From an uncultured Holophagaceae bacterium (lineage in GTDB: Bacteria > Acidobacteriota > Holophagae > Holophagales > Holophagaceae), in the NCBI GenBank assembly GCA_903913215.1, contig CAIWKE010000034.1, forward strand, positions 13,483-77,482: DNA of 64,000 bases, written 5' to 3'. This document shows positions 28,142 through 39,271 of the stretch, piece by piece. The position numbers and the translations under genes are program-made. How positions within the stretch are numbered: position 1 is the first letter of the stretch; the number at the start of each line of letters is the position of its first letter. The notes under the pieces were generated by a model. That model saw only the letters and a list, made by a program, of their open reading frames with translations. It did not search any database and was not told the DNA's origin.

Positions 28142-29515
28142 ATGAATCCATCCCTGCTCACCCGTGCGGCCCTGGACCAGTTCGCTGCTGAGAACCGGGC
28201 GGCCTTCGAGGCGGAGCTGAAAACCCTCGTGGAAATCCCCAGCATCAGCGCAGACCCGGCCCGGCAGGGGGACATCCGGCGCTGCGCCGAAGCGGCCCGC
28301 AGCCTCTTCGAGCGCCACGGCGGCAAGGCCGAGATTCTCGAAACCAGCGGCAATCCCCTGGTCCACGGCTGGTTTGGCGAGGATCCCAGTCAGCCCATCA
28401 TCACGGTCTACAACCACATGGACGTGCAGCCCGCCAATGAGCCCGAGTGGACGGCGGAGCCCTTCACCTTCGTGGTGGACGGGGACACCTACCGGGGCCG
28501 GGGCAGCACGGACGACAAGGGTCCGGCGGTCACCGCCCTCTTCGGCGCCCTGGCCGCACGCCGCGCGGGTGTGCCCCTCAACATCCACTTCCTCTGGGAA
28601 CTGGAAGAAGAGATCGGCTCCCCCAGCTTTGAGGGTGGCCTGAATCGCCACAAGGACCGCCTGAAGACCGATGCCATCGTGGTGAGCGACACGGTCTGGA
28701 TCACCCGGGGCAAGCCCAGCACTCCCGCAGGTCTGCGGGGCCTCAAAGGCTTCCGCCTGACGTTGGAGACCGCAGACCACGACCTGCACAGCGGCGTGGT
28801 GGGCGGTGCGGCCCGCAACCCCCTGGCGGAGCTCATCAAGGTGGTGGCCGCCATGATGGACGGCGAGACCGGCAAGGTGAAGATCCCCGGCTTCTACGAC
28901 GAGGTCGTGAAGCCCTCCAAGCAGGAACTGGAGGAGTGGGCCAACGCGGGCTTCAGCGTGGAGACCTTCAAGAAGGATCACATGATCACCGGCATGCGCA
29001 CCGAGGATCCCCTCAAGGTGATGAAGCGTGTGTGGGGCCGACCCACCATGGAAGTCCACGGCGTCGTGGGCGGCTACACGGGCCCCGGCATCAAGAGTGC
29101 CGTGCCCCCCCGGGCCGAGGTAAAGATGAGCTGCCGCCTGGTGCCGGACATGGATGAGCACAAGACCATCGAGCGCATCCGCACCTTCGTGAACCGGAAC
29201 TTCCCCGATGTGCAGTTTCACGAGGAGCACGGCCTGGCCCCCTTCAAGGGCCACGTCACGGGCCCCTACGCCGAGGCCATCAAGGACGCCTACAAGTTCG
29301 CCTTCGATGCCCCCTGCTCCTTCACCCGCGAGGGCGGCAGCATCGGCGCCGTGAAGACCATGGAGGACCTCCTGGGCTGCCAGGTCTTCTTCCTGGGCCT
29401 CAGCCTCCCCAGCCATGGCTACCACGCCCCCAACGAGAACTACGACTGGGAGCAGGCCAGCGGTGGCATGGCGGCCTTCGCTCACTACTTCGAGACCGTG
29501 AGCGGGATCAAGTAG
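28142..29515 (+). CDS. M20-family dipeptidase
   Basis: YNHMDVQPA, GRGSTDDKGP and WELEEEIGS metal-ligand motifs. ATG at 28142. Confidence 0.85.
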   Translation: MNPSLLTRAALDQFAAENRAAFEAELKTLVEIPSISADPARQGDIRRCAEAARSLFERHGGKAEILETSGNPLVHGWFGEDPSQPIITVYNHMDVQPANEPEWTAEPFTFVVDGDTYRGRGSTDDKGPAVTALFGALAARRAGVPLNIHFLWELEEEIGSPSFEGGLNRHKDRLKTDAIVVSDTVWITRGKPSTPAGLRGLKGFRLTLETADHDLHSGVVGGAARNPLAELIKVVAAMMDGETGKVKIPGFYDEVVKPSKQELEEWANAGFSVETFKKDHMITGMRTEDPLKVMKRVWGRPTMEVHGVVGGYTGPGIKSAVPPRAEVKMSCRLVPDMDEHKTIERIRTFVNRNFPDVQFHEEHGLAPFKGHVTGPYAEAIKDAYKFAFDAPCSFTREGGSIGAVKTMEDLLGCQVFFLGLSLPSHGYHAPNENYDWEQASGGMAAFAHYFETVSGIK

Positions 29516-29531
29516 GGTTCATGACTCTGCG

Positions 29532-29562
29532 CAGAAACGCCGGCCAGGGGCCGGCGTTTCTG
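29532..29562. terminator. Terminator-like hairpin between convergent genes
   Basis: CAGAAACGCCGGCC-AGGG-GCCGGCGTTTCTG. There is no clear U-tract. Confidence 0.45.
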
Positions 29563-29573
29563 TATTCGGTTGC

Positions 29574-30602
29574 CTACCAGAGCGGCTGCATGGGGGTTTC
29601 CTGGAAGACCGGTGCCCGCCCTGAGGGCCTACCGTTCCCATCTTGGCTGGAGAGGCGCAGGATACCCAGATAGGGCGCGGCGCTGGGGTCATAGAGCACG
29701 GTGATGCTGCCGCCCCGGCCCGGACTCCCGCTCCAACCATCACTTCCACTTGAGCCATCGCTGCCGCTGGAGCCACTGGGGGAACCCGACCCCCCGAACC
29801 CACCTCGACCACCCCGCCCCCCGCGGCCCCCGGATCCGCCCGCGCCTCCATCCGCCTTCACCGTTAGATAGCCCCCTTGGGGGTCCACCAGAAACCGATC
29901 AATCCGGTCACCACCTCGCACGCTCACCTGTAGCAGGGGATGGGGGCCAGGCCTGAAAGCCACGTTCACCAGGAGGGATGGCGCGTCGCCACCGGGCCCT
30001 CCATTGTCACCGTCGCTGCCACGGCCTCCATCGGAACCATTGCCTCCCGGGGAGGGGTTGTTGAGGTCGTTGGAACCTGAGCTGCCACTCATGCCATCAG
30101 ATCCAGCCATTCCGTCCATGCCCGAGAAGCCGGGGCTTCCGGAAAAGTCAGCGTGGAAGCCCCAGTCGTACCTCACGGGGATATCCAACTCCGTTCGTAG
30201 TTCCGGGTGACTGGGCACAGTGATGATCAGGTGGGGGGTCCGCCCATCGCTGAGGCGAGGGTCCGAGGGCAGCGAAACCACGCCCTTCGGACTAACCCCC
30301 GCCACCGTGCTAGAAAGCTGGAGATCCTCCCAGAGAACCTTGCCTCCAGGACTCCCCTCAGTGTGCAAAGTAGCACCGTCCGGCTGCACCAAAGTTACGA
30401 CGAGGGCAGCCTTCCCACTGGGTGCCATACCTCCCTCCGGTAGGGTGGCGGATAGGGCGCTGATGGAGGTCTTCTCCAGACGGACCCGCCACCCCATCCA
30501 AACTTGGATTGGTCTGCAACTGAGGCCTATGAGCGCCAGCAACATGCCAACCAGACCCTGCAGGATTCGGCCCAGGCTCGAGACAGGTGGGGATGCGCGC
30601 AT
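29574..30602 (-). CDS. Secreted/anchored Gly-rich protein with two G-X-Y tracts, function unknown
   Basis: N-terminal hydrophobic segment ILQGLVGMLLALIGLSC. Beta-strand-like segments are interrupted by GSPGFSGMDGMAGSDGMSGSSGSN..GGNGSDGGRGSDGDNGGPGGD and by GGAGGSGGRGGRGGRGGFGGSGSPSGSSGSDGSSGSDGWSGSPGRGG. Confidence 0.6.
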   Translation of the reverse strand: MRASPPVSSLGRILQGLVGMLLALIGLSCRPIQVWMGWRVRLEKTSISALSATLPEGGMAPSGKAALVVTLVQPDGATLHTEGSPGGKVLWEDLQLSSTVAGVSPKGVVSLPSDPRLSDGRTPHLIITVPSHPELRTELDIPVRYDWGFHADFSGSPGFSGMDGMAGSDGMSGSSGSNDLNNPSPGGNGSDGGRGSDGDNGGPGGDAPSLLVNVAFRPGPHPLLQVSVRGGDRIDRFLVDPQGGYLTVKADGGAGGSGGRGGRGGRGGFGGSGSPSGSSGSDGSSGSDGWSGSPGRGGSITVLYDPSAAPYLGILRLSSQDGNGRPSGRAPVFQETPMQPLW

Positions 30603-30779
30603 GCTGGCCTCACTTGGTGGCAATGATCTAGCTCCCGTTGAGCTTCTTTACCAAGGGAGGGGCATCTGGCGTATTAGGTTGAGCACCATTCCATCGAACT
30701 GAAGGTCTGACCCGCGTTTCCTGGAAGCTCAATCTCGCCAGGTCCTCAATCACCAGCAGGCTCTACCCTGCTGACTGTA

Positions 30780-31150
30780 GGACATGGACAAGCGGAAAAT
30801 CCATCAACCAGATCCGCACCTTCGTGAATCTGAACCACCCCGATGTGCAGTTCCACGAGGAGCACGGCCTGGCCCCCTTTCAAGGGCCACGTCACGGGCC
30901 CTACGCTGAGGCAATCAAGGACGCCTACAAGTTCGCCTTCGACGCCCCCTGCTCCTTCACCCGCGAGGGCGGCAGCATCGGCGCCGTGAAGACCATGGAG
31001 GACCTCCTGGGCTGCCAGGCCTTCTTCCTGGGTCTTAGCCTCCCCAGCCACGGCTACCACGCCCTCAACGAGAACTACGACTGGGAGCAGGCCAGCGGCG
31101 GCATGGCCGCCTTCGCCCACTATTTCGATACGGTGAGTGGGATCAAGTAG
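30780..31150 (+). pseudogene. Truncated, frameshifted duplicate of the 3' end of the M20 dipeptidase gene
   Basis: 98 of 108 aligned residues are identical to the C-terminus of 28142..29515 (hand count). A compensated +1/-1 indel pair gives APFQGPRHGPY where the intact copy has APFKGHVTGPY. The first ~40 nt are out of frame. About 355 N-terminal codons are missing. Confidence 0.8.
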
Positions 31151-31159
31151 GGTTAGCTT

Positions 31160-31203
31160 CCTTTTCAGAAACGCCGGCCAAGGAACCGGCGTTTCTGAAA
31201 AGG
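31160..31203. terminator. Terminator-like hairpin (diverged duplicate of the one at 29532)
   Basis: CCTTTTCAGAAACGCCGG-CCAAGGAA-CCGGCGTTTCTGAAAAGG. Confidence 0.5.
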
Positions 31204-31330
31204 AAACATACCCTATTTTCTTTCATGAGCGAGACCGCCACCAGTTGGTCTATACAACTCCTGGACCCTATTCCAGGCCAAGCGCCATAAAGCAACCAGA
31301 ACAGGACGCGACTCACCATGAGGCCTAGCG

Positions 31331-34300
31331 CTATTTTATCTGCTGGATCATCACGGTAAAGGCGTAGGGGGCGGAGGAGTGCCCGTTGTTATAATTGCCC
31401 AAATTGTCTCCACCTGTGCCTGTGTAAACCACCTTGACCAGATCGCCAGTGTCCGCTGAGAACATCACGGTGTGACTGTTGGGCGCGAATCCGCTGGCCG
31501 GAGTGACAAACGCGAAAGCCCCTGCGGCGATTAGTGTATTGTTCTTCCGCACCTCCCCAGTGAAAAGAGGGGGGTTGTTACCGCCCTCAGAGATGCTGAT
31601 CGCCTGGGTGTTGACCTGCACCGTTAGGATGTATATCCCCGTCGTCGGCATCGTATAGACGCCAACATTGGAAGCAATACCTGCATTGACTACCGTGTTA
31701 CCTGCTACTAAATCGTTGGTACCAATCCTGACCGAACCGATGGCTGCATCCTGGACCGCTGCCATTGAAGTGCCGCCGGCGGGGGCTAGGCTCAGCCAGG
31801 CACCATTCCCACCATTTGCTGCTGCACTCCAGGTCAGGACCTGACCATCCTGGTTGGTGTTGGCCGTATGGTCCGCAGGTGGCGCCAGGGCCAGGAGCGA
31901 GCTGCCCTTGATGTTCACGTCGTTGGCGTAGATCGTGCTCCAACGGTTGGTGGCGGAACCAAGTGTGGTCGCGTTGTTGGCACCCGGTACCACTTCGGCA
32001 AGCGCATTGACCCATCCAAACGAGCCATTGTTGCCGATGACCATCTGATCGGCCTTGGTGGTCGCTGCTTGGGCGCCAATGGCGATCTGGTTATCGGCGG
32101 TGGGGGCGGTTGTGGTTGCACCGTAACCTAGGAAAATCCCATGGCTTCCAGATGACAAGGGATTGCCCGCACTTCGGCCTACGGCCACGTTTCCAACCCC
32201 AGTCACCGGATCCACGCTGCCCTGCAGCGCGTAGGTTCCAATCGCGACATTTTCGTTTCCGCCCGTGCTCGCCTGTTGGAGCGCCTGATAGCCCACGGCC
32301 ACATTGCTGGAAACGGCACCATCCCCGCCCTGCAGGGTGGCCTGGCCGATGGCGACATTCTGGGCACCGGTGAGTGCATAGCCGGCCACTTCTCCCATCG
32401 CAACGTTGCTACCGCCAGTGGTATTGCTCCTGAGCGCGAAGTGCCCGACACCCACATTCCACTTCCCCGTTGTGTTCGCATAAAGGGCATTGCTGCCAAG
32501 ACCCACGTTTTCTTTGCCTGTAGTATTGGCATTCATCACGTTGATACCGACCGCGGTGTTGTCCGAACCGGATTGATAGATGCTTCCAAGTGAACTTGCT
32601 CCGATGGCCACATTGCCGGTACCGGAATCGCCGAACAAATTTCCCTGCAAGGCGTTGTACCCCATGGCCACGTTGTAGTTGCCCGTGCTCAGGAACATCA
32701 TCGCGTAACCGCCCACGGCGGTATTGTTCTGCCCGCTCGTGAGGGAACTCAGCGCATAGGTTCCAAGCCCCGTGCTATTCACAACACTGCTCGTCATGGT
32801 GAAGTTACCGGCATTCAAGCCAAGGAACGTATTACCTGCACCAGAGCCATTGCCTGACACGCCGCCGAAAGAATGGAGAAAGGGATAGAGCGTTCCACCG
32901 GTGAAGATCTGCACCGCCGAGGATGCTCCCGTGCTGTCTGGAAGTCTGAGGTTGTGCGCAATGGCCACATAGCCCGAATTCGAGTTGGTGATGTCGTTGC
33001 CGCTGGTCGTCCAGGGGCCGCCACCACCAGCGGTAGCCACCCAACTCCGCGCACCAGCCGCGGTCGACGAGAGCACATATCCATCAGCCCCGGGATTTCC
33101 TAAGACAGGCTCCTTCCCCGCCACAGCCGAGGTCACGAAGGCCGTAGTGGCGATCTGGGTGGTGTTGGTGCCACCGGTGGCCGTGGGCGCCGCTGGAGTG
33201 CCTGTGAATGTGGGTGAAGCAAGCGGGGCCTTGACTGCCAGGCCAGAGGCCACAAAGGCTGTCGTGGCGATCTGTGTGGTGTTGGTGCCACCGGTCGCCG
33301 TGGGTGCCGCTGGAGTGCCTGTGAAGGTGGGTGAAGCCAGCGGTGCCTTGCCGTTGAAGGCCGTCCAGTCCGCCGCGCTCAGCGCACCACGATTGGAGGC
33401 CGAGGCGGTCGGCACATTGAGCGTGATGACCGGCGTCGAGGTGCCCGTGGCCACGCTGGAGGACAGGTCTGCTCCTGTGGTTCCGAGCGTCAAGGCCGCC
33501 ACACTGGTGACCGTGCCGCTGCCCTTGGCGTTGAAGGTGGCGAAATCCGAGGCCGCGAGGTAGCCATCCACACTGGAGGTGGCCTTCGTGATGCCAAGGG
33601 TTCCGCTGCCCGTGATCGGGCCACCCGTTAGGGGGCCGGAGGTGGCCACGCTGGTGACCGTACCCGTGCTGCCACCCGCAGCGGTCACTGGTGCCCAGGC
33701 GCTGCCATCGAACTGGTAGAGCCCTGGGGTGCCATCGGACTGGTAGACCAGCAGGCCTGCGGTGGGCGTGAGAATGGCGGCGCGCTGGACAGCAGTCATG
33801 CGCGGGGGCAGAAAGCCCTTGGTGCTACTGGTGAGGTCCAGCAGGGCGCTGGCATCCGGTGTGGCCGTCCCCAACCCCAGCGAACCTGTGGTGAAGACGA
33901 CATTCGAACCCGACAGGGTGAGGGGGCTTGCGCCCGCCGGTCCCATGGCACCCGTGGCGCCGGCAGGCCCCTGGGCGCCAATCACCCCTGGCAGCCCCTG
34001 GGGGCCCACCGATCCCGTGGCTCCTGCCGGGCCTGTGGCACCTGTGGCGCCGGCCGGACCTTGGCCCCCGGTCACACCCGGCAGCCCCTGGGGGCCCACA
34101 GATCCGGTGGCTCCCGTCGGCCCAGCGGGTCCCTGAGGGCCTGTTGCACCGCTGGGTCCGGCAACCCCCTGGGGCCCAGTCGCACCTGTGGCACCCGTCG
34201 CGCCAGTGGCTCCGGTGGCTCCGGTCGGACCGGCGGGTCCCTGGGTGCCGGCCACGGATCCCGCCACCCACTTGGTGCCGTTGTAGACCAGGGCCTGACC

Positions 34301-34810
34301 AGAGGTGGGGGGCGTGGTGGCTAGGTCGAGGGGAATGCCCTGCAGCTTCAGCACCAGGGTCTGGTTCTGGGTACCGCCCAGGTCACCGCTGAAGGAGCCG
34401 GCCAGAGTCCATGCGCTGATGGCCTGGAAGGCGGGAACGATATCGATGTCAGGGGCGAGGGCCTGACCGGATACCGTGACGTGGAGCTTCAGGCCCGCCT
34501 TGCCGAGCGCGGCTGCTGGTAGGGTTGGCATGCCGGTAGCACCCAGCACCACGGAGTAAAGACCCTCGCTCACGGTCAGGGTCTGCGCACCGGAGTTCCA
34601 CAGCTCCGTGCTGGTGCTGTCGAGGATACTGAAGGTGAAGCTGCGCACGCCGCTGACAGCTGTAGCACCCTCCAGCAGCCGTCCTTGATAGGCCAGCGTG
34701 GGCAGCGGTGCGACATCCGCCGCAGCTTCTGCAACCTGGGCCTGGAGGACGGGAACGCCAACGCAGGCAATGAGGGTGGCGATGGTGGGTGTGAGGAAGG
34801 CACGGCGCAT
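31331..34810 (-). CDS. Large secreted fibre protein: collagen-like GXY tract + tail-fibre repeats + YadA-head-like repeats + C-terminal C1q/TNF-like domain
   Basis: Start taken at the ATG at 34810 ([26 protein letters not shown] signal peptide). Modules are described in the findings. Residue numbers follow the 1180-codon track ORF. Confidence 0.85.
33134..33349 (-). repeat. Tandem 39-codon repeat inside the fibre gene
   Basis: [33 protein letters not shown] occurs twice (residues 509-541 and 548-580). The DNA copies are nearly identical. Confidence 0.9.
33932..34240 (-). repeat. Collagen-like G-X-Y tract (~34 uninterrupted triplets, includes a 30-codon tandem duplication)
   Basis: Residues 212-314: [56 protein letters not shown]...GAMGPAG. 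Confidence 0.9.
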
Positions 34811-34869
34811 GGGGTTCACCTTGGACGAAGCGTGGAGAAGGCAGGAATGGAAGGATCGGTAATAGAAGG

Positions 34870-35397
34870 TCACTTCACGGGCGGGACGAAGCCGTGGCGC
34901 ACCTTGATGGCCCCATCGGCGGTGGCGGCCAGCGTCGCCGGGACAGCCTCACCCACCACGGCCCCGTTGGAGACGCCCGTGCCCGGAACTGCCTGCTGGG
35001 CACCGAAGGTCTGCACGAAGTTCGGTGAAGTCACCGCCGGGGGTGGTGGCGCCAGGATGCTGAGGCCGGTGCTGGCGGTGTAGCGCACGTCCTTGGCCCA
35101 CACGGCGTAGATCGTGGCCTGGCCCGGCGTGGCGGAGGCGGTGAACCGCCCGGTGGCCGAGATGGTCCCCGCAGTGGCGGGCAGCACCGACCAGATGGCC
35201 TCGCTGCCCCAGGGCGTGCTGGCGCTGAACTGCAGGGTCTGGCCCGCCACCAGGGAGGGCGTCTCAGGCAGGACGGTCATCCGCCAGTTGGTGGTTCCAG
35301 CCCGGTCGCCGGAGTTATGGGTGCTGTAGCAGCCCTGGACCAGCAGCAACGAGAGCAGCGCCAGGCAGGCGCAGCGCTGATTCATAGGAGCCCCCAT
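34870..35397 (-). CDS. Lipoprotein with bacterial Ig-like (Big_2) domain
   Basis: [12 protein letters not shown] lipobox-like signal. Big_2 pattern [11 protein letters not shown]...[30 protein letters not shown]. The start at 35397 overlaps the upstream stop (TAATG); an alternative ATG is at 35385. Confidence 0.7.
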
Positions 35398-35975
35398 TAA
35401 TAGGTCCAGATGAGGTTGAGGGAGGCCACCCGCGTGGGCTGGTTCTCCTGCCCGTAGCGACTGGCCACAAAGCGGAACTCGGCCCCCAGGTTGGCATTCC
35501 AACGGCGGCCCACGAGGAGGCCCACCCCAGCCCGGGTCCAGCGGCTGGACCCCGAGGGGCTGAAGGTCCCCGTGGGCGTACTCAGCCGGTTGGTGCTGTC
35601 CACGGTCCAACGGATGCCGTAGAGCCCCAGACCCAGGAACCAGCGTTCCTGGTGGAAGAGCTGCTCGAGGCCGAGACTTTCATCGTGCACCCTGGTGTCG
35701 ATTTCCTGGTGAACGGTAGGCGAGTCCTTAATCTGGCGCCCTGCTCCAAACTGCTCCCGATCCAGGCGCAGGCGCAGGGTCTGGTTCACGTAGGAGCCCC
35801 ACTCCAGCCGTGCCCCGAGGCTGGCATCGAGCCCGGAGACGGTGGTCAGCTTGAGGTCCGGGGATGCAGGCACCAGCAGGCCCGCCTGCAGGCCCCACCG
35901 GAAGGACTCCCCGGCGCTCAGGCCGGTCCAGACAAACATCCAACCGACCACCAGTGCCGGAAAAACCTTCCACAT
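35397..35975 (-). CDS. Small outer-membrane beta-barrel protein (~8-strand class)
   Basis: Signal peptide MWKVFPALVVGWMFVWTGLSAGE. Alternating strands. C-terminal aromatic signal (LNLIWTY). Confidence 0.6.
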   Translation of the reverse strand: MWKVFPALVVGWMFVWTGLSAGESFRWGLQAGLLVPASPDLKLTTVSGLDASLGARLEWGSYVNQTLRLRLDREQFGAGRQIKDSPTVHQEIDTRVHDESLGLEQLFHQERWFLGLGLYGIRWTVDSTNRLSTPTGTFSPSGSSRWTRAGVGLLVGRRWNANLGAEFRFVASRYGQENQPTRVASLNLIWTY

Positions 35976-36050
35976 GCCGACTCCACATCCTCGGGTCACC
36001 TGAGGGCAGCAACCCCTATGCAGACGTCATCGGATCAGTGGCAATGTTCT

Positions 36051-37412
36051 TCAGATCTGGGTTCTACGCTGAACGGCCTGTTTTCTACGCAGGGCACCCG
36101 AATCGGGGTAGCTGAGGATGGCGGCGAAGCCGATCAGGCCGAGCAGGGCTCCCGCAACCCCCGCCAGTTCCACGCCGAGAGGTCGGGCCGCGTCCTTGCC
36201 GAAGGCCGCGAACAGGAAGCCCAGAAGCAGCGCCGCCAGGCCATAGGAAAGCTTGGTAAAGAAGCCTTGGACGCCGAAGAACATGCCCTCCCGCTGTTCG
36301 CCGTGCAGTAAAGCATCCTCCTCAGCCAGGTCGGCCACCATGGCGTTGGGTATCACCAGCAGAACCGCCATGGGCCAGCCCAGCAGCACCATCTGGGTCA
36401 GCGCCAGCGGGACCCCCCACGACCCGGCCCGGCTGATGACCAGCCCTCCGGGGAGCAGCAGAGCGAAGCCCAGCAGCGCCGAGGCCAGCAGCACCTTGTT
36501 GGAATGACGCCCCGACAAGCCCTTCAGCATCGCGAAACCCAGGACCGAGCTGACCAGGACCGTGGTCATGAGAATCACCTGAAATCCTTGGGGCTTCTGC
36601 AACAGGACCACCGGATAGTAGGCGATGGTGGCGCGCATGATATTGAAGGCCGTGAAGAGGCAGACCTTGGCGATCAGGTAGAGCAGGAAGGCTCGGTTGT
36701 CCAGGGTGCGCCGCACAGAGGTCCAGAACGGCAGGGCTTCTGGCCGCGCTGAGGCGAAGGGCGCTTCGTCCACCACCATCGAGGGGGCCAGCATCAAGGC
36801 CAGGGCCAGGCCACAGCAGACCAGCACCGCCAGCGTGAAGGAACCTGACCGGGACCAGAGCAGCGGCAGGCCCACCATGACAACCACACCCCCCAGCAGG
36901 GCCATCACCGCCTGGAAGGTCGTCAGTGAGATCCTTTCGCGGTGGGTGCGGGCGAGTTCGCCGATCAGTGCCAGGTAGGGCAGCAGGAACCACGTATAGA
37001 ACATGAAGAACAGGCCCAGAAACACCATCTCCCAGACAAGGTTGAGCGCGCTGGGAAAGCCCTTGGGTGGAAGGAAGAGCAACAGGCAGCAAAGGGAGAA
37101 GGGCAGCGGCCCCGAGAGAAGGAACAAGCGCCGTCGGCCAAAACGGGTCTCCAGACGATCCGACCACCAGGCGACCCAGGGCTCAGTCAGGGCCTGGACC
37201 AGGCGGCCAGAGAGAACAATCAGCCCGGTCAGGGTCAGGCCCAGGAAAAGGGTCTGGTTGCTCACCCGCTCTGGCAGGCCGCACCCGACGGGAGGCAGGA
37301 GGAAGAAGATGAAATACAGGCCGAAGATGTTGTCCAGAATCCCATGCCCCCCGCTCCCAAGGCTGTAGAGCAGGCGCCCGTGCCAAGGCGTTTCCTGGGA
37401 TGCATGGTCCAT
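36051..37412 (-). CDS. MFS transporter, glycoside-pentoside-hexuronide (GPH) cation symporter type
   Basis: 12-TM pattern. N-terminal YSLGSGGHGILDNIFGLYFIFFL and DRLETRFGRRR motifs are typical of MelB/GPH-like carriers. Confidence 0.8.
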   Translation of the reverse strand: MDHASQETPWHGRLLYSLGSGGHGILDNIFGLYFIFFLLPPVGCGLPERVSNQTLFLGLTLTGLIVLSGRLVQALTEPWVAWWSDRLETRFGRRRLFLLSGPLPFSLCCLLLFLPPKGFPSALNLVWEMVFLGLFFMFYTWFLLPYLALIGELARTHRERISLTTFQAVMALLGGVVVMVGLPLLWSRSGSFTLAVLVCCGLALALMLAPSMVVDEAPFASARPEALPFWTSVRRTLDNRAFLLYLIAKVCLFTAFNIMRATIAYYPVVLLQKPQGFQVILMTTVLVSSVLGFAMLKGLSGRHSNKVLLASALLGFALLLPGGLVISRAGSWGVPLALTQMVLLGWPMAVLLVIPNAMVADLAEEDALLHGEQREGMFFGVQGFFTKLSYGLAALLLGFLFAAFGKDAARPLGVELAGVAGALLGLIGFAAILSYPDSGALRRKQAVQRRTQI

Positions 37413-37477
37413 CCGCCCATGGTAACCCTTGAGAACAACCTCTTGATTGCAACAAACTGTTCCTGGAAAGGTAGGCC

Positions 37478-38479
37478 ATGGAGCAACCCCGCACCTCCTG
37501 GCATCTGGACTGGCTCACTGGCCCTCAGCCTGGTTGTGTGCGGTTCGATCGAGGCTGGTCCAACATGTCTGCCACCCCCATTCCCCTGCCCGCAGACTGG
37601 GGCAGCGGCACCATGGAGCTCCATCATCTGGGCCAGGGCATGGACATCTCCCGCATCCAGGTCACCTTCGAACCATCAGTCCTGGGCCAGTCCCTGCCCC
37701 TGGCGGTGGTTCGAGGCACAGTCCCGGAACCCATGTTCGGGGTCTATGCCATCCGGGAAGGGCGTGGCAGCATCCGGGAGAACCGTGTGGGCATGGACTT
37801 TCCCCTGGAGGCGAAGGACTGCCTGTTCCAGCATGCGGACTACCTCGACTTCGAGCCGGTGCTCAAGGCGACCCCGAAATTCGAATCCACGACCATCACC
37901 ATGGGCATGCCCGTGCTCGCCTCCCTGCTGGGGCAGGATGTCGCCCAGCGGCTGTTGGAGAACCTGGGTCTCCGGACCTGTCCTTCGGCCGCCGCCCGTA
38001 CTTTGCCGCCCAGCCTCTTCCGCCTCCTTCATGAAACCCTGCCAGCCGCTCTGACGGACCAGATGCGCATCCTCTTCAGTCAGGCCAAGACCCTGGAGTT
38101 CCTCTGCGCTCTCTCCACCTTCCTGGTCGATGGCCGCCCCGCAGGTAGCTGCCGCCCGGGCATGCCCGCCCTCATGGACAAGCTCCGGACAGACCTCATG
38201 GCCCATGAGGGCAAGGTGCCCATGCTTGGCGAGCTGGCGGAAACCCACGGTCTTTCCGCCCGGACCCTCAACGAAGAGTTCCGTCGTCAGTTCGGGACCA
38301 CCATCTACAACTTCATCCTGGACCACCGCCTGAGCGAAGCCCGCGTGGCTCTCGAGAAAACCGACGTTCCCATGAAAGTCCTGGCGGACCGCCTTGGCTA
38401 TTCCCACGTCAACCACTTCATCAACGCCTTCAAGCGACGCTACGGCGTGTCACCGGGAAGCCTGCGCCGCACGACTTGA
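37478..38479 (+). CDS. AraC-family transcriptional regulator
   Basis: C-terminal double HTH (LGELAETHGLSARTLNEEFRRQFG ... VLADRLGYSHVNHFINAFKRRYGVSP). Divergent from the MFS gene. Alternative start at 37565. Confidence 0.8.
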   Translation: MEQPRTSWHLDWLTGPQPGCVRFDRGWSNMSATPIPLPADWGSGTMELHHLGQGMDISRIQVTFEPSVLGQSLPLAVVRGTVPEPMFGVYAIREGRGSIRENRVGMDFPLEAKDCLFQHADYLDFEPVLKATPKFESTTITMGMPVLASLLGQDVAQRLLENLGLRTCPSAAARTLPPSLFRLLHETLPAALTDQMRILFSQAKTLEFLCALSTFLVDGRPAGSCRPGMPALMDKLRTDLMAHEGKVPMLGELAETHGLSARTLNEEFRRQFGTTIYNFILDHRLSEARVALEKTDVPMKVLADRLGYSHVNHFINAFKRRYGVSPGSLRRTT

Positions 38480-38482
38480 AGG

Positions 38483-39271
38483 TCAGAAAGTCCCCTGCAC
38501 CAGCCCTCCATCCACCAGCAGGCTCTGCCCCGTGACGTAGGAGGCCTGGGCGCTGGCAAGAAAGGCCATGACAGAACCCACTTCTGCAGGCTGGCCGATG
38601 CGGCCCATGGGAATCACGGCGGCCTGCTTGGTGAAGTGCTGCTCGATAGTGATGCCTTCGGCCTTCGACTTCACCTCGGCCAGGTGCAGCTGGCGGTCAG
38701 TCATGACATGGCCCGGCAGTAGGGCGTTCACGGTGATGCCATCCTTCGCGGTCTCCAGGGCCAAGGTGCGCGTCAGCCCTGCAAGCCCCGCGCGCAGGGT
38801 GGAGCTGATGGTGAGCAGGGGGTAGGGCTGCTTGGCCACCAGGCTGGTGATGTGGAGGATGCGGCCCCAGCGCTGCCCACGCATGCCTGGCAGGACCAGG
38901 CGCACCATGCGCACCACGTTCAGAAGGGTCGAATCTACTCCGGCCAGCCAGTCCGCATCGCTGAGGTCACCGAAGACGGCCGCCTTCGGGCCCCCCGTAT
39001 TGGTGACAAGGATGCTCACGACCCCCAGGGCCGCCACGGTCGCCTGATGCCAACGCGCCAGATCCTCAGCCTTGGAGACATCCACGGTCGAGGCCAGCGC
39101 GGCCACGCCCAGGGCCTCCAGCTCGGCCTTGGTCGAGGCCAGGGCTTCTGCGCCCCGCCCGCAAATCGACACGGCGCAGCCCTCCGCCGCCAGGGCCAGC
39201 GCCGCCGCCCGGCCCAGCCCCTTGCTGCCCGCCGCCACCATGGCCACCTTGCCGCGAATACCCAGGTCCAT
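38483..39271 (-). CDS. SDR-family oxidoreductase
   Basis: VAAGSKGLGRA (TGxxxGxG-like) motif, NTGG, and the catalytic S...Y/K region. Confidence 0.85.
   Translation of the reverse strand: MDLGIRGKVAMVAAGSKGLGRAAALALAAEGCAVSICGRGAEALASTKAELEALGVAALASTVDVSKAEDLARWHQATVAALGVVSILVTNTGGPKAAVFGDLSDADWLAGVDSTLLNVVRMVRLVLPGMRGQRWGRILHITSLVAKQPYPLLTISSTLRAGLAGLTRTLALETAKDGITVNALLPGHVMTDRQLHLAEVKSKAEGITIEQHFTKQAAVIPMGRIGQPAEVGSVMAFLASAQASYVTGQSLLVDGGLVQGTF

Follow-up and report, generated by a model that had tools for sequence, protein, structure and literature searches.

We analysed a 64,000-nucleotide stretch of DNA from an uncultured Holophagaceae bacterium (assembly GCA_903913215.1, contig CAIWKE010000034.1, positions 13,483 to 77,482), hereafter referred to as the window. 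Three consecutive genes on its minus strand encode a small outer-membrane (OM) barrel, an Ig-like lipoprotein and a large fibre protein. The same three genes were found together in other genomes and in metagenomes, and we consider it moderately probable that they form a dedicated base for a cell-surface fibre in Acidobacteriota, mostly in Holophagaceae and Geothrix. The window had a high guanine + cytosine (GC) content (~66%) and comes from a Geothrix-like bacterium; the closest named homologues were Geothrix proteins.

The barrel gene (35397..35975) and the lipoprotein gene (34870..35397) overlap in a TAATG sequence, in which the TAA stop codon of the former and the ATG start codon of the latter have one A in common (…TAT TAATGG…). 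The fibre gene (34810-31331) starts 59 nt after the lipoprotein stop codon. A preliminary description of this DNA had given the position, signal peptide and final residues of the barrel, its TAATG coupling to the lipoprotein gene and the distance to the fibre, and all of these were verified in the sequence. A promoter and terminator scan of positions 29400-38600 yielded counts no better than those of shuffled sequence and was uninformative on operon structure.

Products of the three genes

The barrel protein (192 amino acids) was characterized by the signal peptide MWKVFPALVVGWMFVWTGLSA (MWKVF…LSA, followed by GE), eight predicted strands and a C-terminal aromatic beta-signal (…LNLIWTY); its homologues likewise ended in F or Y. 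The AlphaFold2 (AF2) model, based on 18 homologues, had a predicted local distance difference test score (pLDDT) of 86.7 and its strand pattern fitted eight strands, three of which were about 20 residues long. When this model was compared with the PDB using Foldseek, the top matches were the transmembrane domain of OmpA, Ail, NspA, OmpX and the N-terminal part of OprF, with E-values of 3e-9 to 2e-6, and all of the best matches were 8-stranded barrels. From the length of its modelled strands, the sheet of the barrel may extend beyond the membrane, as it does in OmpX and Ail.

At the sequence level, the window barrel matched no Pfam or NCBIfam family, including PF13505, PF02462 and PF06316. Distant relatives (P0169, P0175, P0184, and P0200) matched PF13505 (OMP_b-brl), and one homologue (P0006) carried PF02462. 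A profile search of 1.84 billion representative proteins returned 113 relatives, 65 of them below E=1e-10, and the weak end of this list graded into Pfam OMP_b-brl. Because its relatives are so few and the weak ones grade into that family, the barrel defines a sequence family of its own, narrow in extent, whose fold is a common one.

Barrel topology was set from the AF2 secondary structure and the rule that the termini and short turns of OM proteins are periplasmic. With this topology, entropy was the same in the putative extracellular loops as in the transmembrane strands (1.45 in both). The best-conserved regions were the hairpin of loop L3 and loop L4 ('YGQEN'), and the periplasmic turns were the least conserved. 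This pattern is opposite to that of typical OM proteins and suggests, as far as the model goes, a conserved partner on the outer face of the barrel.

Some Holophagaceae barrel homologues carried an N-terminal lipobox (LVLGC or LLLGC), as observed at L010 (6991-7989) and L011 (7007-7990) and also at L014, L016, and L017. In these proteins, a Pro/Ala-rich linker of about 150 residues precedes the barrel domain; they are predicted to be lipidated, tethered 8-stranded barrels.

The second protein (175 amino acids) was composed, from the N-terminus to the C-terminus, of a lipobox, a conserved linker, a Big_2 core (about residues 40-115) and a conserved tail. The lipobox cysteine, Cys23, was invariant in the 23 aligned homologues (23/23; consensus L-[GA]-C), so that the protein is predicted to be a bacterial lipoprotein. 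Its score against Pfam Big_2 (PF02368) was 22.6 bits, with a gathering score of 22.8; six homologues had precomputed PF02368 assignments and one is named a BIG2 domain protein in UniRef. The tail, of about 60 residues (residues 116-175, window 35052-34873), ended in the consensus VRHGFxPP. Overall, the lipoprotein family comprised 80 clusters.

The fibre protein (1159 amino acids) starts with MRRAFLTPT…, in agreement with all homologues. Residues 1-25 (34736..34810) form a signal peptide, ending VLQAQ before V, as delimited in an alignment of 21 loci. The cysteine in its hydrophobic region was not conserved in this alignment and is not a lipobox residue; because it varies between homologues, the fibre itself is not considered to be a lipoprotein. 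The signal peptide is followed by an N-terminal domain (NTD; residues 26-187, 34250..34735), delimited by conservation in the 21 loci and by the AF2 model. Mean column identity over the first ~190 residues was 71%, and Gly-X-Y repeats always came next. Within the NTD, the beta-sandwich spans residues 35-130; it is followed by a conserved segment (residues 131-153) and, further on, by a short hairpin at residues 172-185. Its model had a pLDDT of 80.9, with values above 93 in the sandwich; the segment 131-153 was not confidently folded alone. Fold searches against the PDB and BFVD returned nothing below E=1e-3, and only generic Ig-like or macroglobulin-like sandwiches were found among the matches, with no known anchor or phage adaptor fold. 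A distant relative of the NTD sandwich (YQGRL… motif, E ~1e-13) was observed in a stand-alone secreted protein of 334 amino acids (P0256; L038, 6001-7005) with no lipoprotein or barrel nearby, so this fold also exists outside the module.

The NTD leads into a stalk of 36 Gly-X-Y triplets (residues 188-295, 33926..34249), which was recognized by Pfam Collagen (E=2.6e-13), by PDB collagen chains and as a regular-expression run; such a collagen-like stalk implies that the fibre would be a trimer. It is followed by a mosaic shaft (residues 296-965, 31916..33925), defined by its PHROG matches and its similarity to the fibres of other modules (24-45%, mosaic). Phage tail-fibre, tail-spike and virion structural families of PHROG matched the fibre from about residue 176 (residues 176-923), and the shaft contained phage-tail-fibre-like repeats (2 x 29 residues), as well as GxNxAxG repeats that look like those of YadA heads. 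The protein ends in a globular C-terminal domain, the distal tip (about residues 966-1159 and the stop codon, 31331..31915). No Pfam match was obtained for the tip and no PDB sequence match for the distal 189 amino acids, and we make no claim that the tip is a C1q/TNF-like domain.

Collagen was the only Pfam match of the whole fibre, and NCBIfam models matched the collagen region only, with 56-67 bits versus cut-offs of 325-500. No autotransporter or YadA anchor, type IX secretion system (T9SS) C-terminal domain (CTD), LPXTG or PEP-CTERM was found in the Pfam and NCBIfam scans; YadA_anchor (PF03895) was not found by Pfam in the whole fibre or in residues 301-1159 at E<=1. The fibre had been described as lacking any known OM translocation or anchor domain, and these scans agree with that description.

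Fibre length in other modules varied between about 880 and over 3,200 residues, and past the collagen stalk these proteins were mosaic. Their ends differed between loci, with a Peptidase_S74 chaperone, NHL-like repeats or unrelated domains. The Peptidase_S74 domain was observed in the orthologues of L001, L002, L005, and L040 and was absent from the window fibre, whose tip bears no relation to the S74 chaperones that terminate its syntenic orthologues. At three loci, tandem fibre genes, each with its own NTD, followed a single lipoprotein gene (L023, 10648-13302 and 14082 to the locus end; L091, 3872 and 6001; L096, 636 and 2492), and one base may serve several fibres there.

Conservation of the triad and linkage of its domains

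To determine whether the triad occurs in other genomes, a check put forward in the preliminary description, we scanned with hidden Markov models (HMMs) for the barrel, lipoprotein and NTD-fibre genes. The three genes were found in the same order and on the same strand at 30 loci, 22 of them non-redundant, in a set made up of GTDB genomes and targeted look-ups. The scan of GTDB species-representative genomes, for which the two most distant sequences were left out of the alignment, returned 25 loci, nearly all in metagenome-assembled genomes (MAGs) of Holophagaceae and a few in other Acidobacteriota. A metagenome scan that started from the fibre NTD returned 67 loci. Among the 61 with room upstream, the lipoprotein was detectable by HMM in 54, and 4 more encoded a divergent, core-swapped lipoprotein with the same C-terminal tail motif. 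Lipoprotein and barrel were both present in 38 of the 46 metagenome loci with room for both. The triad is therefore conserved, both in the 22 non-redundant loci and in the metagenomes, and its absence elsewhere, named in the preliminary description as a refuting outcome, is clearly not what was observed.

The genomic context of the triad varied. In Geothrix proper it occupied one locus, in the order SDR gene, gene for a 345-aa Gly-rich protein, barrel, lipoprotein, fibre and convergent M20 peptidase gene. In non-syntenic contexts (L008/L009, L010, and L011), the lipoprotein gene always came after a barrel homologue and before a large fibre gene. At L010 and L011, the modules adjoined unrelated housekeeping genes. 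At L008/L009 (1-14200), a full module was observed amid IS66 transposase genes, a serine recombinase gene, two ParB/RepB genes, ArdC and McrBC, and judging from these genes this copy is on a mobile or integrative element. Some MAGs contained two to three copies of the module. Since the contexts differ, single MAGs hold 2-3 copies and one copy is assigned to a mobile element, the three genes are a real conserved unit and more than chance synteny.

One further module, on a contig labelled as a Betaproteobacteria MAG (L013, JBAXHE010000111.1), closely resembled the module of a Holophagaceae MAG (L015), with only about four aligned positions differing between their NTDs. The L013 contig is probably mis-binned, rather than the product of a cross-phylum transfer.

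The variants of the module were informative at the level of single domains. At L034 and L035, the barrel, the lipobox and the Big_2 core were kept, with the core fused to giant PKD/He_PIG repeat adhesins, and the lipoprotein tail and the separate NTD-fibre were lost together. Conversely, at L067, L091, L092, L093, and L099 the tail and the NTD-fibre were kept, but the Ig core was of another type (Big_5 in L067) and no barrel gene lay alongside; the upstream neighbours in these barrel-less loci encoded a polyprenyl synthase and an anti-sigma factor, a two-component system or a methyl-accepting chemotaxis protein. The same Big_5-type core as in L067 was present in L071 and L080, on contigs too short upstream to judge the barrel. 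Overall, the tail nearly always travelled with the NTD, and the Big_2 core mostly with the barrel. Because of this double linkage, these patterns point to the lipoprotein as a candidate adaptor with two interfaces.

Correlations between distance matrices had the signs expected of such an adaptor, with a partial r of 0.65 for tail and NTD, 0.62 for core and barrel, and -0.23 for barrel and NTD once the lipoprotein was controlled for. We give them little weight, because collinear DNA plus recombination would yield the same pattern, and the correlations do not distinguish that effect from an adaptor.

Regulator, neighbouring genes and tip exchange

Upstream of the barrel, the window contains a gene for an MFS_2 (GPH-type) transporter (36051..37412, minus strand; Pfam MFS_2, E=1e-46) and a gene for an AraC-family regulator (37478..38479, plus strand; Pfam HTH_18 and HTH_AraC). 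Both had been placed on the strand of the module and proposed to co-regulate it; the placing holds for the MFS gene, and the AraC gene is on the opposite strand, divergent from the module.

The regulator recurs. Full-length AraC homologues, with 27-37% identity that includes the non-DNA-binding domain, were found divergent and directly upstream of the barrel. In L010, L025-L029, L031, and L032, the distance to the barrel was 150-200 nt, and the same arrangement was present in 8 of the 27 metagenome loci with room. As 15 or more further module loci have a homologue divergent from the barrel, AraC is a recurrent fourth gene, which is not universal: none was found in the upstream open reading frames of ten further loci, most of these frames being probably spurious high-GC ones. 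The proposed co-regulation by AraC is supported by these loci, and AraC is likely to be the regulator of the module.

No MFS homologue was found in 38 loci of the set L001-L039. Moreover, in L041, a close relative 95-96% identical to the window on both sides, 206 nt separate the AraC gene from the barrel, and this interval contains no MFS gene. Window positions 35923-38360, which contain the MFS_2 gene and the AraC gene except its last ~39 codons, could not be aligned to L041 (1907-3053), where the AraC next to the barrel is a different variant from that of the window. We rejected the MFS gene as a part of the module, given its absence from these 38 loci and from this relative; by this alignment, it was inserted between AraC and the barrel, or replaced what was there, in this locus specifically, and it may now be co-transcribed with the module. 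The regulator domain was apparently swapped when the transporter gene was inserted, a hint that the inducing signal has changed.

Exchange was also observed at the distal end of the fibre. A metagenome relative (L040) was 96% identical to the window over the barrel, the lipoprotein and the NTD. DNA homology ended at window position 33036; the L040 fibre ends in an S74 chaperone, at the position of which the window fibre has an unrelated domain of about 190 amino acids. GC content was 55-59% over positions 31200-33000, versus 66-72% in the remaining module and flanks, and this drop coincided with the part of the fibre that is exchanged in L040. It could come from an Asn/Thr/Ser-rich composition and/or a foreign origin. 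Exchange of tips between strains that are 96% identical suggests strong diversifying pressure, which could be exerted by phage, by predators or by substrate specificity, such as attachment to particles or Fe(III) minerals in Geothrix.

Downstream, between the fibre stop codon and a gene for a 349-aa Gly-rich protein (p349; 29574-30623, minus strand), we found a duplicated piece of the M20 peptidase gene, a frameshifted remnant of its 3' end (30784..31190, plus strand). It comprises about the last 330 nt of the gene and a terminator hairpin, and is 94% identical to positions 29150-29560; the flanking M20 peptidase itself is 93% identical to its G. limicola counterpart. The remnant is probably the scar of a recombination event that replaced the fibre module and, with it, part of the adjacent gene. 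The 349-aa protein contains GSDG/GGRGG repeats and a lipoprotein-like signal, and matched no Pfam, NCBIfam or PHROG family. Its orthologue in other Geothrix, the 345-aa Gly-rich protein (61% identity), has a weak collagen-like match and is encoded upstream of the barrel, whereas p349 is encoded downstream of the fibre. The remnant and the relocated gene mark recombination at the downstream edge of the module. The 349-aa protein was also considered as a fourth part of the module and rejected, as it adjoins the module at the Geothrix syntenic locus only.

Interpretation of the module

The two small envelope proteins had been proposed as an anchor or an usher for the fibre. Judged by comparison across loci, the anchor appears to be the best reading, and the usher is not supported. 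This reading brings together the gene order, the protein folds, the co-occurrence of genes and of domains, the fused and swapped variants and the exchange of tips. The fibre would be exported by Sec and would trimerise via its collagen stalk; the machinery that takes it across the outer membrane would be encoded outside the module and may be a type II system, as it is for Lcl of Legionella. Its NTD beta-sandwich would then be captured non-covalently by the conserved C-terminal tail of the lipoprotein, which would pair with the OmpX/OmpA-like barrel through its linker and Big_2 core. At the outer membrane, the lipoprotein would be held or presented by the unusually conserved extracellular hairpins of the barrel, whose role would be that of an anchor or dock, not of a channel. 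The distal tip, which varies and can be exchanged by recombination, probably serves as an adhesin or receptor-binding head, and the divergent AraC regulator probably controls the operon.

Several points weigh against surface anchoring in this form. No adjacent barrel was found at L023/L049/L081, L037, and L039, despite the presence of Big_2-type lipoproteins and fibres. As the adjacent barrel is missing in several lineages, it is either not universally required or substituted by a barrel encoded elsewhere. In addition, L016 has a barrel and a lipoprotein with no fibre downstream, L036 has a lipoprotein alone, and L054 has an NTD-fibre with no recognisable lipoprotein upstream. The extracellular position of the barrel loops depends on AF2 secondary structure and a general rule for OM proteins; the surface exposure of the lipoprotein and all the physical contacts are what we infer from the comparisons, and the OM route, surface location and biological role of the fibre are likewise putative. 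Finally, the model does not account for the passage of a folded collagen trimer across the outer membrane.

Among the other explanations, the one that survives best gives the lipoprotein a periplasmic role, as an assembly chaperone or pilotin of the NTD that would aid trimer nucleation or pass the fibre on to a general secretion system instead of anchoring it permanently, with the barrel as an accessory envelope protein. The near-constant association of tail and NTD fits this role, as does the conserved NTD segment 131-153, which was not confidently folded alone; moreover, lipoproteins sorted by Lol normally face the periplasm. However, in L034 and L035 giant Ig-repeat adhesins begin, as one covalent chain, with the same lipidated Big_2 module, and because of these fusions a structural base is preferred to a transient chaperone. 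The conservation of the putative extracellular barrel loops also argues against a periplasmic role, which we regard as unlikely.

It is distinctly unlikely that the fibre is released, as a lectin-like or bacteriocin-like product, or decorates vesicles, with the two small proteins serving release, self-protection or receptor masking. Polymorphic tips exchanged between near-identical strains, a module copy on a mobile element and a phage-tail-fibre-like architecture would all suit a released product, but no toxin or immunity-like genes were seen downstream in the inspected loci. Moreover, the constant part of the fibre is its N-terminus, encoded beside an OM lipoprotein, which fits tethering, and the fused variants are classic anchored adhesins.

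An export function, in which barrel and lipoprotein would constitute a dedicated usher-like translocon for the fibre, is suggested by the tight linkage and translational coupling of the genes and by the lack of any recognisable secretion or anchor domain in the fibre. A monomeric barrel of eight strands leaves no open lumen through which a polypeptide could pass; the OM translocons known are either oligomeric secretins or barrels of 12-36 strands. To our knowledge, no barrel of the OmpA/OmpX/Ail type passes a polypeptide, let alone a collagen trimer. Since the window barrel was modelled with only eight strands, matching OmpA, OmpX, Ail, and NspA, and since loci with lipoprotein and fibre exist without an adjacent barrel, we consider export to be improbable.

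There is very little probability that the module is a prophage or tailocin remnant, with the fibre as a virion tail fibre and the barrel as a Lom-like moron. In phage lambda, lom is located beside stf, and barrels of the Ail/Lom type are known phage morons; the PHROG tail-fibre matches and the Peptidase_S74 chaperones of the orthologues would fit such an origin. The fibre has, however, a Sec signal peptide, and flanks were cellular in all inspected loci, with no phage structural genes. No relatives of the NTD were found in 2.9 million viral contigs (IMG/VR), and neither the barrel nor the lipoprotein had a PHROG match. Lastly, coincidental adjacency of three unrelated envelope genes, kept by synteny in one genus, is hardly credible: the triad of Geothrix proper is always located between the SDR and M20 genes, but elsewhere its contexts are many and unrelated, paralogous copies share a MAG, and its domains are lost or retained in concert.

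Beyond surface anchoring as such, we tentatively suggest that the module could represent a new, Acidobacteriota-restricted class of surface display, a proposal for which our confidence is low. In this class, the barrel would present a lipidated Ig adaptor whose tail captures the NTD, possibly by strand complementation, and tips would be swapped like cassettes. The same base of barrel and lipidated Ig domain would also bear fused giant Ig-repeat adhesins, and so be a general socket. Such a class may be non-homologous to type V secretion, chaperone-usher pili, T9SS/PorP anchoring and the retention modules of type I secretion systems.

The attachment of fibres in diderms outside the well-studied phyla is little understood, and Acidobacteriota are abundant in soils and sediments. 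The module offers a testable system of three or four genes, with a constant base (barrel, lipoprotein and NTD) and interchangeable tips. If the adaptor model is true, it would describe a new way of anchoring surface adhesins and would help to single out the giant proteins of Holophagaceae that are displayed at the surface; the barrel, lipoprotein and NTD tag would form a compact scaffold, possibly usable for surface display.

Comparison with known systems

No description of the module was found in the literature on Geothrix, Holophaga or Acidobacteria, and it is apparently undescribed; the folds of its components are familiar, and its function is putative. The preliminary description had considered it distinct from type V autotransporters, chaperone-usher pili and T9SS, and the defining features of these three systems, when looked for, were absent.

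Types Vc and Ve secretion resemble the module in having trimeric or Ig-repeat surface fibres in diderms, and the combination of barrel and Big domains recalls intimin and invasin. However, their translocator is a 12-stranded barrel covalently joined to the passenger, whereas the module barrel is separate and 8-stranded; no 12-stranded barrel fused to a Big passenger, as in type Ve, was found. As regards chaperone-usher pili, no Pfam match to an usher or a PapD-like chaperone was obtained in the three module products, and the barrel has only 192 amino acids. As regards phages, the fibre has the repeats of phage tail fibres, with an S74 chaperone in its orthologues only, and none of the inspected loci lay in a phage or tailocin structural cluster.

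The type V pili of Bacteroidota have OM lipoprotein anchor subunits (Mfa2/FimB) and an Ig-like filament base. Their subunits join by the insertion of a terminal strand or tail into the beta-sandwich of the neighbour, and the pili polymerise from pilins that derive from lipoproteins and undergo proteolytic processing. They show no sequence relationship to the module, which would dock a single collagen-stalked trimer. Docking of the lipoprotein tail to the NTD in the manner of this strand insertion is a plausible analogy; donor-strand exchange would be pure conjecture.

Other likenesses concern single components. With OmpX, Ail, the N-terminal domain of OmpA and NspA, the module barrel shares its fold, size, signal peptide and C-terminal aromatic residue. 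OmpX and Ail bind external proteins. The module barrel differs from this family in having no Pfam match, in its conserved rather than hypervariable loops and in its coupling to a lipoprotein and a fibre. RcsF is a lipoprotein that is paired with OM barrels for surface exposure; these are general porins or OmpA, not a dedicated barrel, and no fibre is involved. In the Bacillus exosporium, BclA is a collagen-stalked trimer whose N-terminal domain sits on dedicated basal-layer proteins; unlike the module, it belongs to a monoderm spore coat and involves no lipoprotein or barrel.

The fibre has the Gly-X-Y repeats of the bacterial collagen-like adhesins Lcl and Scl1/Scl2. No equivalog match was obtained, and the anchors proper to these adhesins (LPXTG in Scl; an N-terminal helix, with a DUF1566 head, in Lcl) were not found, with no LPXTG match. 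The NCBIfam Lcl model scored 66.8 bits on the fibre, versus a cut-off of 500, the likeness being in the collagen repeats only. Lcl is a collagen-like trimer that is secreted by the type II secretion system and re-attached to the surface of its own cell via an N-terminal element (PMC11162425). Like the module fibre as proposed here, it is a Sec-exported, trimeric, collagen-stalked adhesin with Gly-X-Y repeats of variable length and a C-terminal binding head. Its anchor, however, is an amphipathic helix of 30 residues that binds the membrane directly, with no dedicated partner genes.

In Bacteroidota, PorP/SprF-like barrels anchor their cognate T9SS cargo with type B CTDs (PMC9143113). As is proposed for the module, a dedicated OM barrel is encoded beside a large adhesin, which it retains on the surface, and many paralogous barrel-cargo pairs can be present per genome. 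The PorP/SprF system depends on T9SS and a C-terminal CTD signal and has larger barrels, whereas in the module the constant element is N-terminal, a putative lipoprotein adaptor is placed in between and the barrel is 8-stranded; no model of a type A or B CTD matched the fibre (NCBIfam at E<=1, and Pfam). None of the analogues compared is homologous to the module; the kind of function that we infer for it, a dedicated outer-membrane anchor for a surface adhesin, is one that is already known.

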